64,000 nucleotides of DNA. It comes from Spirochaetia bacterium. GTDB taxonomy: Bacteria > Spirochaetota > Spirochaetia > DSM-27196 > Salinispiraceae. Location of the stretch: positions 32,001 to 96,000 of the forward strand of contig JBBRCZ010000009.1 in the NCBI GenBank assembly GCA_038204425.1. Direction: 5' to 3'. Position numbers: made by a program. Positions 30,001 through 42,000 of this stretch are shown here, one piece after another (within the stretch, counting starts at the first letter, position 1; every line of letters begins with the position of its first letter).

Positions 30001-33000
30001 ACCTTGCGATGTTTGAAAAAGCCATCGATAGTTTGGTAACAACCAGTGGCAGCTTTGTTAACGCATCATCTGACTTGTTTTTGCCAGCCCTAGCAAGCAA
30101 CCGAAATCCTACCTTGCTAAGTCAAAGTGTTTTGCGACAGCAAATTACCTACGGTTGGAATAGTGCAAGTTCTACAGTCAACTACAATTCCGCCAGCCGA
30201 GACACGCGTATGAAAACCGTGGTGGTCAATATTAGCAATAATGCTGACTATTACATTACTCGCGTTAACAATGAGGCAGCGCTCTTAGTAAATGGTAGCT
30301 CTACTATTAACATCCCCAGCGGTGACGCTACGGAAATTGTAAATAGCGATCCCGATGCTGCAGTTTTTAATAAATTTGATCAAAAAACGGTTACTACTGG
30401 AAGTCTAACACCTCTCGATATTGTGGTAGGTACTGCTACTGGCGATCTTGGCACACTTTACAAAAGCCTTGCAGAAGGCGCAGCCAGCATTGCTATTAAT
30501 GGAGCAGATGATATCCCTGGCGACATAACTGGTACCGTGGATGTAAAATCTTTTAGTGGTGCACAGGGTTTTGATACAGGCGCAAATGCCTCTTATACAG
30601 CGGCAGGAACCGTCGAAGCTTGGGTTTACATGAACAGTGTTACTGATACCGGTGGTATTGTACACGCTGGTAAAAATTCTGATTGGCTTGATGAATTGTG
30701 GTCATTACAGTTAAACGGTACCTCAAGACAAGTAATGTTTGCTTTAGTAGCTCAAGGTCCTTACACGTATGGCTATGCACTTTCTGGTACCAAAATAAAC
30801 ACAAAAAAATGGTACTATCTTGTCGGTACATGGTCTAGCAATGCCACTAATACCACACTTAAAGTATATATCAATGGCGTATTGGACAAGACAAGTACTT
30901 CTGCCAATGTCAAAACAAGCTCAAGCTATTCTGGCCCCGTTGACGTAATTGTAGGTTCACAGTTTTATGCAGACAAAGTGCTACCTGGTTACTATGGTTT
31001 TGATGGTAAGATCAATGGCGTATTGTTTAGCGCTGCAGCTAAAACACCGACAGAAATCCTAGACTTCTATAATTTGCACAAGGCAAAGACTGCCAACTGG
31101 TAAGACAAAACAAAGGCCTCCCGCTCGGGAGGCTTTTTTACGCCATGGCTCGCGAAAAGATGCGACGTTCTATAGTTTTTGCCGCATCCGTCAATAGGAA
31201 CCAGGTCACCACAGCGCTTGTAAAAGCAGAAACCAAATAACCAAGCCCGGGGGTCAAGTCCGGTAAAAAATAGTAGAGCACCGGAAACACCAACCCGTTT
31301 AAAAGTATGAAGATCAGTGCCGCGACAAAGGCCTGTCGATACAGTTCAAAGTAGTACAAAAAATTAGTGAGTGTCATAAACAACAATTGGAAATACATGG
31401 CGCCAAGAACTAAAATAGTGTGGTTGCGCATTGCCACATCGTCCATCAACCACATAGCTAAAATGACCCCAAGACTGGTAAACACTGCCTGAAACACATT
31501 TTGAGCACCGACCTCTGCCTTTAAAACCCTTATCATTTCATATTTTGACTTCTGAATTTCATTATATGGTACGGTCAATAGGGAATGTAAAAAATGATTT
31601 AAGGCGCGATAAAAGGCAGTTTCGCAAAAAATGACAAAGTATACCAAGCCAGGAATTATTGAAAGACCTGCCAAATAAACAGGCAGGTCGTATTGGTCAA
31701 ACAATCTAAAAAAACTGCCTTCGACGGGGGTGCCGCGATTAATCCAGAAGAATATTTTGTCCGTCCATTGACCACAATAGAAAAATAAACCCGACAAGAC
31801 CAAGAGAAAATATTTTTGATAATAGGTCTTCAATTTCTTTAAGCGATGCTTTGGTCGACGTGGTGGATACACTAAAAAACTCATTGTAGCGAGTGCCACT
31901 ACAATCAAAAAATGTCCAGCTGCAAATCCGCTAACAGCACCGGCGGCGCCCCAAAGTTGCCCCCACCAGACTACCAGTCCTATTGAGGCCACCATGCCAG
32001 CCACATAGACAAGCATGATGCGCACATACTGTTTTAAAAGCGAAATAAAGAGCATCACCAGCCACAGCAGATTGATAGATACAAACAAAAAAACGCTTCC
32101 CAATCTAAAAAACAAGGGGTGAGCAACATCACCAACAGGCTGGCTAAACATTACCAAAGCAGCGATACCAGCCGATGCCAAGGCCGTAAAGACGGCATAG
32201 TAAATGAGCCAACTTGAGGCTTGGCGTTGTTTGTTTTCCCACAACAAATCAGCAATCATGCGAGTAAACAGGTAGTGCAAACCGCTAAAAAGGCTCAACG
32301 AAAAAGCAAAACTATAGACAATCGCGGCTTGAAAAAGTCCTTGGCTAGCAATGTTGAAAACAGTAAAATAGAGTCGAATCACAAATATGGTAATTATGGT
32401 CAAAATCCAAGGGCCAGCAACAATCAAAATGCCAGAAAGTGCCGCGCTAAAGACATTGGCTAAGCCACCCTTGGCAAAAACTTTTCGTAGTTCAAACCCG
32501 ATTCCTGCCATGTCTAAATTGTCTCCAGCATGCTTTTGTACAAGCTTCGATAGGTATTCAATAAGTCTTTCTTATCATAGAGACTAAATACTTTTTGTCT
32601 GTTTTTTTGGTTGATGAGCTTCATTTCATCAGGATGACTATAAATGTAGCGAATGCCTTGGGCCAACTTTTCCGAGTCCTTGGAGGCAGCCAAAAATCTA
32701 TCGTCGTAATCGAGCATTTCCGGCACGTTGCCAACTTTGGTGCAGACACAGGGCACGTAGGCAGTCCACGCTTCGAGTATAACCAGCGGCTGAGCTTCAC
32801 GGACACTCGTTAAGAGCATAACATCCAAAAATGAATAGTACTCCAACACATTTTGTCGACCAGTAAACAAAAATCTATCTTGAATATTGAGACTCTCTAC
32901 TAGCTTTACGCAGTCTTCGTAGTACGCCTGATCTTCATCGGTTGGGCCAATGGCATAAAAAATTGCCTCAGGAATTTCGTCCAGTATAATTTTTGCAGTG

Positions 33001-39000: not shown

Positions 39001-42000
39001 ACGAGTTTTTTGACCAGAATGTTCCAGCTGATCAAAGTCTGGTGCTGGAAGACATTTTTTCGTACATGGCTGTCGCACCCAACTTTGGGCTCAATCTAAA
39101 ACTGGGTTTGGGCGAACTTGGACTAGAAAGTTCTTATAAATTTAACCAAGTGGAAGACACTTTCTTTCCTCTGCGTACACCGACCTTTGAGCACGATCTG
39201 GATTTGAGCGCAACAATTTATGTGGCACTTCCGGCGCCTTCGGCCTTGCAGAGTATTGGATCACGCACTTATGGCAAAGTTGCAGCTATGTTTTCGCCTT
39301 TCTCAAGCGATATAAACACGCTATATACCATCACTGAGGACTTAAACTTTACTTTCTTGCTCAACTCTAATCCCTGGACCACACTCGTCCTGACAGCCAT
39401 CGCTAGCTATGAAGATTCTGATGACCCTACAGTTTTGGAGTATTACGCACCAAACGCCGTTTTTAACGCTAAGGGTGGTGTGCAGTTTTCTAGCTCGCCT
39501 GCTTTGGGCGAAGGTTGGGTTTTTGGCTATAGCTTGCGCGGTTTGGCAGGCTTGTATCACACAGAAAGCCAAGATCTCTTAAGTTTAGAAGGACTAGTGC
39601 ATCTAGAACTCAACCGTAGTAACCTATCAATCTTCTTGGATATCAGTACAAGCGTTACCACCAATGGCACTACAAGCGACTATTTTTCGTTTAATGCTGT
39701 AATTGGAGCCAGGATAGCCGTGCCGGATTATTTAATACCTTAAGACGCACTTGCAAAAGTCTGTTTTATTGCAAACTAAACAGCTCATGGCATTCTTGAA
39801 AAAGTTTATCTTTTGAGAGAGTGTCCATGTAAGCGTTTTGGAAAGCCTCCAACTGTGCTCGATCTAAGGATAAGAAGGGTAGGTAAGGGTCCAAGAGCTG
39901 AAAGTCTTTGGGGTTATTTTTTAGAATGTCAATGTTTGATGCCATAAAATCAGCTGTCGAAACAAATATTATTGTTTGCTTATGTTCAGAGACTATATTG
40001 TTATTGCCATGTTCCAATGCCGTATCAGTATACACAGCGGGGAAGTTCCATGCTTCAAGAACTTGGTGCCCAACTTCTTTGTGACTAGTACCAAATGCAT
40101 CTATTTCCAATTGGCTAATACGAGATTGACCCGACGCAGCCTTAATTATGAGCGACTCATAAAGTGATTGGTCGGAGTAAAAAAAGGCCACTTGACCAAT
40201 GTTGTGCAAAAGGCCAGCCACAAAAGCTTCATCGGCCTGTGATTTTGAACCGTTTTTAATAGCCAAGTCGCGGGACATAAAAGCAGTTACAAGAGAGTGT
40301 TTCCAAAAAAACTGATAGAATTTTGATTTTTTGGCCGTAGAAAACAAGCTGGATCCCGTTACTAGAATCACAATGTTCTTAATTGTTTTAATGCCCAAAA
40401 GCGAAATGGCTGTCTGCAAGCTGGTGACGGCATTTTGTCGAGCGTACATTGCCGAATTGGAAATTCGTAGTATTTTTGAGGTTAGACCGGGGTCAACGCT
40501 GATAACTTTCTCTAAACTATTAAAACCAAAATCATTTGAATCGACCATACTTAAGACCTTGGTGGCTATGTCGGGCATAACCGGAAGGTTATTTAAATAT
40601 TGGGCATAGTTTTTCATTGGTCAAAAGTATCCTTTGCTGGTCAAGGACTTCTATTATGCAAACAATCCGCGCAAGGTCAACAAGAGAGCTACTTATTGCT
40701 GCAAAGGTACTTACCACCTCACCGCTTCCAATCAAGTAGCTTGTCAAATGGTGGTGTCAATTTGCTTCGTCTCATGCACCGTTGTTTGATTTGTCAAATT
40801 GGTAAAAAAACAAATTGGGGGAGCGCAATTAGAAACCCGCCGGGGGCGGGTTTCTAATGGAGCGCGGGGGCGTGTCTGTTGGTCACATTGCCTGGGTTTG
40901 ACTGACGCCCCCGGATGTATTATGCGTTCTTTGTTGCAAACTCGGTCATGTACTGAGCCAAAGCTAGGCAGCTTTCTTGTGGGCAGGCGTTGTAGATGGA
41001 GGCTCTAAAGCCGCCAACCGAGCGATGGCCGGATAGACCCAACATGCCTAGGGCTTCGGAACCCTTGAGGAAGGCTTTGTCGAGGTCGCTTGCGGCTGCT
41101 TCGTCCAAGCCTGGCTTTTGTATGGTCCAGACTATGTTCATTGTTGAGCGATCGGCTGGATCTACGGGACAGTTGTAGAAGCCTTTGGAATTGTTGATGG
41201 CATCATAGATCAACTTGGCTTTGGCTTCGTTGTGCTTCTGCATGCCTTCGGCGCCGCCTTTTTTGTCTATCCATTTGAGCACTTTGTTGAGGGCCCAGAC
41301 GCTAAAGACTGGCGGGGTGTTGTAGAGTGAAGTTTCAGTTTTTTCGCTGCCGTCTTTGGCTTTGACCTTGCTCACGTGGGTCTTGTAGCCCAAGTAGGCA
41401 CCAAGTGTGTCGGGGGTGGCTTCCAAAAGGTCGTCGCGAATTATAAGCAAGGTTAGGCCAGCTGGTCCGAGGTTCTTTTGCGCGCCGGCGTAGATAATGC
41501 CGAAGTTTTCGATTGGTAGCGGGCGGCTGAGTATGTCGGAGCTCATGTCGGCAACATAGGGTACTGCCAACTTAGGAAAGTCTTTAAACTGGATGCCGCC
41601 AATGGTTTCGTTGGAACATATATGTAGGTAGCTGGCATCGGGGCTCAGTTTGATGTCTTGCAGGGTGGGCAAGCTCATATAATTGTTGGCTTTGCCGTCA
41701 AAAACAACGTTGGCTTTGCCATACTTCTTGAGGTCGTCTTGGGCTTTTTTGGCCCATGCACCGGTGATGGCAATGTCGGCAGTCTTTCCACCGGCAAGTA
41801 GGTTGAGTGGTACCATACTAAACTGTAAGGTAGCGCCGCCTTGCAAAAAAAGTACCTTGTAGTTGGCTGGCACTTTGAGCAGTTTAGTTACCAAGGCGAT
41901 GGTTTCGTTGTGTAGGGCGTCGTATTCTTTGGAGCGGTGACTGGTTTCGATAATTGACAGACCCATACCTTGATAGTCGACCAACTCGTCGCGTAGTTGC

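Follow-up and report, generated by a model that had tools for sequence, protein, structure and literature searches.

Free-living spirochaetes encode a remodelled machine for the biofilm polysaccharide Pel, from which the deacetylase is absent and whose gene cluster contains, instead, a lipoprotein without a family match. We analyzed one such cluster in a window of 64,000 nucleotides from a Spirochaetia bacterium (assembly GCA_038204425.1, contig JBBRCZ010000009.1); features are given in window coordinates, in which position 31138 is contig position 63138. The locus is a genuine Pel-type synthase-dependent polysaccharide cassette, and its seven genes very probably constitute a polysaccharide synthesis-export unit. 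Overall, we read the seven genes as a synthase-dependent exopolysaccharide cassette that descends from Pel and whose polymer would be neutral, would be tethered by the lipoprotein (LP), and would be made without canonical c-di-GMP control. We consider the chances of this reading as a whole to be evenly balanced.

The cassette comprises seven genes

A first-pass annotation had described a five-gene locus. The five open reading frames were confirmed at their positions, but two conserved flanking genes had been missed, encoding LP and an HDOD protein (Table 1). Both are part of the cassette unit. All seven reading frames are open, and contigs from three DNA runs in two studies, one possibly being the source, covered the locus in 30/30 bins with no indel. 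The likely start of the exporter gene, B*, is the methionine codon at its first table position, 47 bases from the start of pelD. A hairpin lies between the convergent stop codons of LP and pelG, with T-runs on either side. A promoter scan of the locus gave 26 matches against 21.9 +/- 5.0, which is not beyond chance, and there was no RNA among the sequencing runs listed for the locus.

Table 1. Features of the spirochaete Pel-type cassette (window coordinates)
Feature	Coordinates	Strand	Length (aa)	Evidence
LP lipoprotein	29127..31103	+	658	PF13385, 59 bits
GC-rich hairpin	31116..31133	none		pattern scan; putative terminator
pelG, inner-membrane exporter	31138..32511	-	457	PF16933, 276 bits, full length
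pelF, GT4 glycosyltransferase	32514..33935	-	about 467-473	NF038011, 344 bits
pelE-like, TPR protein, apparently without membrane anchor	33914..34693	-	259	hhalign to canonical PelE
pelD-like, TM segments, GAF, degenerate GGDEF	34690..36123	-	477	hhalign to canonical PelD
B*, predicted outer-membrane TPR/barrel exporter	36171..39743	+	1190	AF2 and VIA
Stand-alone HDOD protein	39766..40617	-	283	PF08668, 169 bits

For comparison we collected 80 B* loci, 32 PelF loci and 99 order genomes; almost all of the records encountered were metagenome assemblies. PelG scored above the cut-off in 22/99 order genomes, in agreement with the 9/41 reported previously. The layout with a divergent TPR gene, described as conserved, was found in 27 of the 32 PelF loci; the gene was codirectional in three and off the contig in two.

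A Pel-type core without the c-di-GMP site

The NCBIfam assignment of pelF, which has DUF3492 and GT4 domains and far exceeds the NF038011 cut-off of 100 bits, and the Pfam assignment of PelG, which has 10 hydrophobic segments, both held. The PelD-like and PelE-like assignments, until now a matter of architecture, gained profile support. The PelE-like protein aligned with canonical PelE in hhalign at 98.9% (E 2.5e-17), compared with 1.7% for a control against PelB; its gene is the top match in the genome to the canonical PelE profile and lies between pelD and pelF. By hydropathy, a TM segment is predicted in 1/39 cassette homologues versus 5/5 reference PelE proteins, and the membrane anchor thus appears to have been lost.

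The PelD-like protein aligned with canonical PelD at 97.7% (E 2e-12) over the TM segments and GAF domain, and the PF16963 profile did not match it. Its GGDEF domain gave a faint domain match, with the fold supported by profile (FimX, E 1e-7). Both studied Pel systems need c-di-GMP bound to PelD. The RxxD c-di-GMP site is present in 4/4 canonical PelD proteins and in 0/60 PelD-like proteins of the cassettes, a count from which one true GGDEF protein was excluded; elsewhere in the genome there are eight intact R.GG[DE]EF frames. We consider it likely that control is independent of RxxD, that is, of the canonical c-di-GMP I-site. Streptococcal Pel loci whose PelD no longer has a GGDEF domain (PMC7890745) are likewise uncoupled from this site, whereas the spirochaete protein keeps a degenerate GGDEF domain and has lost RxxD.

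The HDOD gene was present in 26/32 PelF loci and 49/80 B* loci, and it also adjoins pelG in another class. None of the 22 genomes in one family (f2) has the cassette-type gene, and ten of them carry pelG; two other genomes have the gene but no pelG. This distribution led us to reject HDOD as an obligatory part of the cassette. That it is a regulator, as a candidate accessory component, is possible but rather doubtful.

The exporter has the fold of an exopolysaccharide secretin

The divergent protein of about 1,200 amino acids had been called secreted and PelB-like, with a beta-rich C terminus. The AF2 model (pLDDT 87.5) resolves that C terminus into a 16-strand barrel (858-1184), preceded by a signal peptide, a CBM6/35-like sandwich (38-187) that had gone unnoticed, and TPRs interrupted by long helices (486-787). 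The N-terminal domain scored 0.93-0.94 against GH115_C/CBM35/CBM6 clusters in Atlas. In a VIA fold search of 48,161 chains, the top four matches were the three known exopolysaccharide secretins, PgaA (Z 26.9), BcsC (Z 24.4) and PelB (Z 23.4), followed by the next match at Z 19.0; Foldseek matched BcsC at E 1.3e-8. The likeness to PelB therefore stands by fold, but PgaA is nearer and there is no PelB sequence match: B* did not match PF24604, gave 0.1% in hhalign against a three-sequence PelB barrel profile, and retrieved TPR proteins only in a sequence search of the PDB. With a periplasmic TPR scaffold and a C-terminal 16-strand barrel, as in PgaA, BcsC and PelB, the predicted model supports B* as an outer-membrane TPR-barrel exporter.

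The nearest barrel fold is that of PgaA, the exporter of PNAG (rmsd 2.4 over 277 aligned residues). PgaA and the cellulose exporter BcsC resemble B* in exporting without a lipoprotein ring; according to PMC12141448, neither requires an extra lipoprotein. However, they share only 7-12% identity with B*, lack its CBM-like domain and 300-residue helical segment, and partner a GT2 synthase, whereas the partner of B* is the GT4 enzyme PelF.

Compared with Pseudomonas aeruginosa pelABCDEFG (PelBC structure 9h80), the cassette has the same PelD-E-F-G order and an exporter that combines TPRs with a 16-strand barrel as PelB does (rmsd 4.7, 345 aligned). It differs in having no bifunctional PelA and no PelC, and in a B* gene that lies head-to-head with pelD and encodes an N-terminal signal peptide and CBM-like domain. 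The Gram-positive pelDEA(DA)FG locus of Bacillus cereus ATCC 10987 (PMC7112168, PMC13254593) has the PelD-E-F-G core in common with the cassette and likewise no PelC. Sister spirochaete cassettes also share its DUF2194 PelA_DA and sometimes have a separate GH114 gene. In contrast, the spirochaete cassette adds the outer-membrane exporter, LP and HDOD, and the source genome has no PelA_DA, a PelD without RxxD and a PelE without TM segments. Thus, the description of the locus as a Pel variant is sound for its core and exporter and for the lack of PelA and PelC here, but not for the identity of PelB or for an absence of PelA throughout the group.

LP in place of the linked deacetylase

The absence of the PelA GH114 domain (PF03537) was upheld, with no match in the genome at E<=10. 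Profiles of PelA and of the PelA_DA deacetylase also found no match in this genome, which is 95.6% complete. The absence of PelC, judged earlier from tables, was borne out by a four-sequence profile: the best match in the genome had an E value of 0.13 and none was found in the 80 loci, although the profile is shallow and a very distant, unlinked PelC is possible. PelA is not missing group-wide, since the cassettes of many relatives include a PelA_DA of the Gram-positive type. These DUF2194 proteins have intact DD/HxxxH motifs and match PDB 9zau at E 2e-65, and some sister cassettes include GH114 and epimerase genes. Because sister cassettes hold these three kinds of genes, the cassette family is tied to Pel chemistry. 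The key loss is that of the deacetylase rather than the hydrolase.

LP was linked to 30 of the 80 B* loci and PelA_DA to 18, with none having both, and it sits beside pelG or B*, where PelA_DA sits. Among the order genomes, LP was present in 18/99, PelA_DA in 3/99 and both in none; outside the class, 18/18 PelG-positive genomes had DUF2194 and 0/18 had LP. Strict genome-level exclusivity was ruled out, as 2/28 genomes encode both LP and a distant, unlinked DUF2194 lipoprotein with intact motifs. The joined D-E-F-G tree rejects a single LP clade (p-AU 0.007, with three changes); the PelF tree by itself does not (p-AU 0.365). The joined tree and the locus counts support repeated replacement of linked PelA_DA by LP.

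Within the class, the mean predicted lumen charge was -7.7 for 16 PelA_DA barrels and -2.8 for 39 LP barrels, the direction expected if the LP-type polymer is less cationic; with only two to three independent pairs, the contrast is not significant. PelA_DA barrels of another class averaged +0.3 (n=10), and together with the independent pairs they led us to reject barrel charge as a general rule.

The polymer could still be ordinary cationic Pel, made by the same core and exporter, if a generic CE4 enzyme encoded away from the cassette (or, in some genomes, the distant DUF2194 protein) deacetylates it; LP would then be an accessory surface lectin. We consider this improbable, though it is the strongest alternative. 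Synthesis halts without the deacetylase in both studied Pel systems, the genome has four NodB-type deacetylase genes (at least three with signal-like N termini), and the window's own barrel is net acidic (-19 over the whole barrel). However, none of the NodB-type genes is near the cassette, deacetylation in the studied systems falls to a dedicated enzyme that is coupled to PelB or PelG, and it is the linked PelA_DA that LP repeatedly replaces. The preferred reading, that the polymer is not deacetylated, has in our judgment slightly less than an even chance.

LP may be a binder or tether

LP has a lipobox (Cys23), an all-beta core (about 45-390) modelled by AF2 as a beta-meander (pLDDT 85), and a C-terminal LamG/ConA-like domain (480-644). 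In the order, 17/18 LP genomes also have pelG; in some genomes LP is unlinked to the cassette or absent. The core family comprises 135 clusters at 50%. The core had no match in Pfam or, by sequence, in the PDB; NCBIfam matches occurred in 6/118 members, probably through appended domains, and were absent from the window's core. Fold searches of the core gave Atlas scores below 0.9, no Foldseek match in PDB or viral sets at E<=0.001, and a best VIA Z of 9.4 among unrelated barrels; PelC, CE4 and glycosidase folds were absent from the matches listed. For PelC, hhalign gave 0.0%, and its absence from the fold matches leaves a likeness possible. LP is thus a well-predicted protein family without a known fold.

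We slightly favor LP as a binder or tether over an enzyme. An LP that modifies the polymer through a new fold, as a deacetylase, hydrolase or lyase succeeding PelA_DA, would account for its occupying the place of PelA_DA and for near-invariant polar residues across 118 sequences (E150, D167, R181, S247, R276, Y278, E297). We judge this unlikely: the same sequences have no conserved histidines or CE4-like motifs, the model is an all-beta meander, neither PelA nor PelA_H profiles match, and both its tandem copies and the lectin tail, which is optional, fit an adhesin or binder.

The product is probably of the GalNAc type

The predicted product is probably of the GalNAc type. PelF might instead take another sugar nucleotide, with the Pel-specific modifying enzymes lost as a result. 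Spirochaete PelF proteins form a separate clade with about 31-36% identity to canonical PelF, the exporter lacks a PelB sequence match, and no PelX-like gene lies in or near the locus. No close PelX-type epimerase was found in the genome, where UDP-GalNAc could be supplied by several SDR epimerases (23-34% identity, best 28-34%), none linked to the cassette. We nevertheless give a different polymer little credence, as PelF proteins from PelA_DA-bearing and LP-bearing cassettes are mixed within one clade and the GRxxPIK and ExxPxxxLE motifs are the same as in canonical PelF. A decaying relic of deacetylase loss, which the patchy distribution, loose ends within pelG and HDOD in two DNA runs (their sequences match nothing in the genome) and one PelA_DA-type relative (L077) with broken B* and pelF might suggest, is very improbable given the seven open frames here and dozens of intact LP-type loci in several lineages.

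A model for the cassette

Gene content, homologies, predicted folds and co-occurrence are established for the cassette, and from these we infer a sequence of steps. At the inner membrane, a PelD-E-G complex in which PelD holds the anchorless PelE would be the site where PelF builds an alpha-1,4 polymer from UDP-GalNAc, and PelG would then move this polymer into the periplasm. There B* may catch it with its CBM-like tip, the TPR/helical scaffold carry it across, and the PgaA/BcsC/PelB-type barrel export it without a PelC ring. No dedicated deacetylase would act in the source genome or in most relatives with LP, so the polymer would leave fully or largely N-acetylated and neutral. LP, with its lectin-like tail, may bind or tether it at the outer membrane. 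Control would not pass through the canonical c-di-GMP I-site, and HDOD is a candidate accessory regulator. The full combination of a deacetylase repeatedly swapped for a new-fold lipoprotein, a neutral poly-GalNAc, a CBM-tipped PgaA-like secretin and a non-c-di-GMP switch, possibly HDOD, is less likely than not.

In the literature searched, we found no description of a spirochaete Pel system. If the full combination holds, it would be the first Pel system known to dispense with deacetylation, and also the first on record from spirochaetes. The cassette family adds a third Pel architecture, in which a Gram-positive-type core is combined with a diderm secretin. Because nature provides cassette pairs with and without a deacetylase on the same core, together with a PelD that lacks RxxD, deacetylation gating and PelD switching of the synthase could be tested by swaps. 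The product may serve environmental spirochaetes as a matrix polymer.

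Layout of the Pel cassette

The cassette is real, intact, Pel-derived and widely conserved. All five ORFs of the first-pass annotation (pelG, pelF, the pelE-like and pelD-like genes, and the divergent gene for the TPR/barrel exporter B*) are present, and its coordinates, which were already window coordinates, were confirmed. It had missed two genes, those for a lipoprotein (LP) and an HDOD protein. The two genes upstream of pelF and pelG overlap their neighbors in operon fashion. Judged from the sequence, B* most likely starts 47 bases from the pelD start, a reading in which a purine-rich ribosome site precedes each of the two starts.

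Features in and around the cassette (window coordinates)
Feature	Position	Orientation	Description
Aryl-polyene-like biosynthetic cluster	8152-25337	-	ketosynthases, reductase, ApeP- and ApeI-like dehydratases, AMP-binding protein, aromatic amino acid lyase; further genes: MMPL, LolA-like, GT2, acyltransferases, O-methyltransferase
UvrA-like fragment	28676-28957		DNA-binding, 93 codons, between ppk2 and LP gene
LP	29127-31103	convergent	lipoprotein
pelG	31138-32511		far above curated cut-off
pelF	32514-33935		far above curated cut-off
B*	36171 (start)	divergent	exporter
HDOD gene	39766-40617		

Contigs of three DNA runs (two studies; one run possibly the source) covered the cassette stretch without indels. 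Both sediment runs had loose ends at 31921, in pelG, and 40229, in the HDOD gene; the foreign letters at these points were not found in the host genome and may represent strain insertions or other organisms. At 42.5%, the G+C content of the cassette (29127-40617) is below that of the genome (46.2%) and of the nearby serC and pgi (about 50%). The UvrA-like fragment is probably a pseudogene remnant. All of the 32 nearest PelF loci carry spirochaete titles, as do 77 of the 80 top-ranked exporter loci (out of 124); the remaining 3 are titled just "bacterium."

PelD, PelE and the exporter

The PelD and PelE assignments had been made on architecture. A profile of 39 PelD-like sequences matched four canonical PelD (97.7%, E 2e-12), the match spanning the TM and GAF parts, and the PelE-like profile matched four canonical PelE (98.9%, E 2.5e-17; 1.7% in a control against PelB), with references drawn from annotated plasmid loci. 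Thus, the main caveat on these assignments is closed. PMC7112168 describes the I-site RxxD as necessary for c-di-GMP binding in both P. aeruginosa and B. cereus. We saw this motif in 4/4 canonical PelD and in 0/60 cassette PelD-like proteins (45 of them from the class and 15 from outside it; a true GGDEF protein caught by the profile was excluded). The host genome holds 8 intact R.GG[DE]EF frames. A hydrophobic segment was present in 1 of 39 PelE homologues versus 5 of 5 reference PelE. At the level of sequence, the losses of RxxD and of this segment are two conserved departures from canonical Pel.

In the AlphaFold2 model of B* (pLDDT 87.5, pTM 0.75), a signal helix is followed by a beta-sandwich (38-187); TPRs come next, then long helices (486-787), more TPRs and, at the C-terminus, 16 strands. 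A fold search over 48,161 chains placed PgaA first (Z 26.9, rmsd 2.4, 277 aligned), BcsC twice next (Z 24.4 and 23.7) and PelB fourth (Z 23.4, rmsd 4.7), with a drop to 19.0 for the fifth; by sequence, B* had no match to the PelB barrel. The N-terminal sandwich, its most conserved region, resembles GH115_C/CBM35/CBM6 clusters (Atlas 0.93-0.94; Pfam E 0.016). The B* counterpart of another class in the phylum ends in FlgD-Ig and OmpA domains, and at L090:11600-12709, L093, L103 and L108 a TPR-SLH protein of ~370-410 aa lies between pelD and the exporter with this tail. At loci L191, L199 and L200, HDOD and a second TPR gene lie upstream of the exporter gene, and there is no pelDEFG within 8 kb.

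In the host genome (95.6% complete), we found no GH114, the PelA hydrolase domain, as first reported, and neither DUF2194 nor the spirochaete form of PelA_DA, the Gram-positive-type deacetylase. Profiles of canonical PelA, PelA_H and PelC had no significant match over 9,786 stop-to-stop frames of the genome, which puts the absence of PelC, earlier judged from tables, on a profile search. Since PgaA and BcsC are described as functioning without a lipoprotein ring (PMC12141448), the absence of PelC is coherent. Four NodB-type deacetylase genes lie on contigs other than the cassette's.

LP and PelA_DA

The LP family is small (135 clusters at 50%); its LamG tail is optional, and one of its subgroups is distant (hhalign 96.9%). 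The LP core was modeled confidently as a beta-meander, for which structure searches gave no clear relative. Seventeen of the 18 LP-positive genomes among 99 of the order also carry pelG, and in the 18th, LP lies beside a piece of an exporter gene where the contig ends. A phylum sample had LP in 3/401 genomes, all three pelG-positive (four candidates were scored per genome). LamG-tailed copies also lie far from the cassette in cassette-bearing genomes (L136:9048-11117, L135:8151-10247). The HDOD gene, present within 26/32 PelF loci and 49/80 exporter loci (overlapping sets), is accessory, because the cassette type is absent from family f2 and occurs in two genomes without pelG.

Some sister cassettes encode a full DUF2194 PelA_DA (E 2e-65 to PDB 9zau, a code that occurs in PMC13254593), sometimes with GH114 and epimerase genes. 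Outside the class, PelA_DA was found in 18/18 pelG-positive genomes and LP in none; in the order, PelA_DA was found in 3/99 genomes, none with LP. Across 80 exporter loci, 18 had PelA_DA, 30 had LP and none had both, within flanks of at most 8 kb, many ended early by contig ends. However, LP and a distant, unlinked DUF2194 occurred together in 2/28 PelF-scan genomes; these DUF2194 scored 190-204 bits and in-class copies 895-1585. In a joined D-E-F-G tree (LG+G4, 31/47 rows kept), the LP/PelA_DA state changes three times, possibly in either direction, and a single LP clade was rejected (p-AU 0.007); with PelF only (59/74 rows), it was not rejected (p-AU 0.365).

The PelB lumen is described as anionic and guiding cationic Pel (PMC12141448), and therefore a more acidic lumen is expected with PelA_DA. 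Over just 2-3 independent contrasts, the predicted lumen-facing charge of in-class barrels was -7.2 with PelA_DA versus -2.3 with LP in the first set and -7.9 versus -4.1 in new barrels; the other class averages +0.3. This modeled difference is only a hint.

Other pel loci and literature

Some genomes of the other class (L091:8508-14525, L092, L094, L095, L096, L107) have a second pelF-pelG pair, whose PelF forms a separate clade; after this pair come a distant HDOD gene and one for a GAF-kinase. The fourth relative's pelG (L148, G028:C46:14000-19000) had been described as lone, but a short pelF-like piece precedes it and a GH114-like gene follows. On a Cetobacterium plasmid record (L119:7193-16427), a pel locus has GH114, a GAF protein, DUF2194, pelF and a long pelG, with no TPR-barrel gene found nearby; by gene content, this is another diderm with a Gram-positive-type Pel core.

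Our literature searches found no paper on Pel in spirochaetes; subscription papers and further supplements, including the pelX species list, could hold a mention. "Spiroch" is absent from the main text of PMC7112194, PMC7112168, PMC12022489, PMC13254593 and 10.1101/2020.05.26.111013, and six Pel terms are absent from PMC12236494. The PMC7112194 survey describes Gram-positive loci with just pelF and pelG and frequent gene loss; in its supplements, spirochaete names are confined to the searched-genome list, with none in the predicted-operon tables.

Proposed mechanism

By gene content, the cassette family is tied to Pel chemistry through PelF and the PelA_DA, GH114 and epimerase genes of sister loci. 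The host cassette would make a GalNAc-type chain, which would pass through PelG, be caught by the CBM-like tip of B* and be released, largely acetylated, via the barrel. LP may then bind the released chain.
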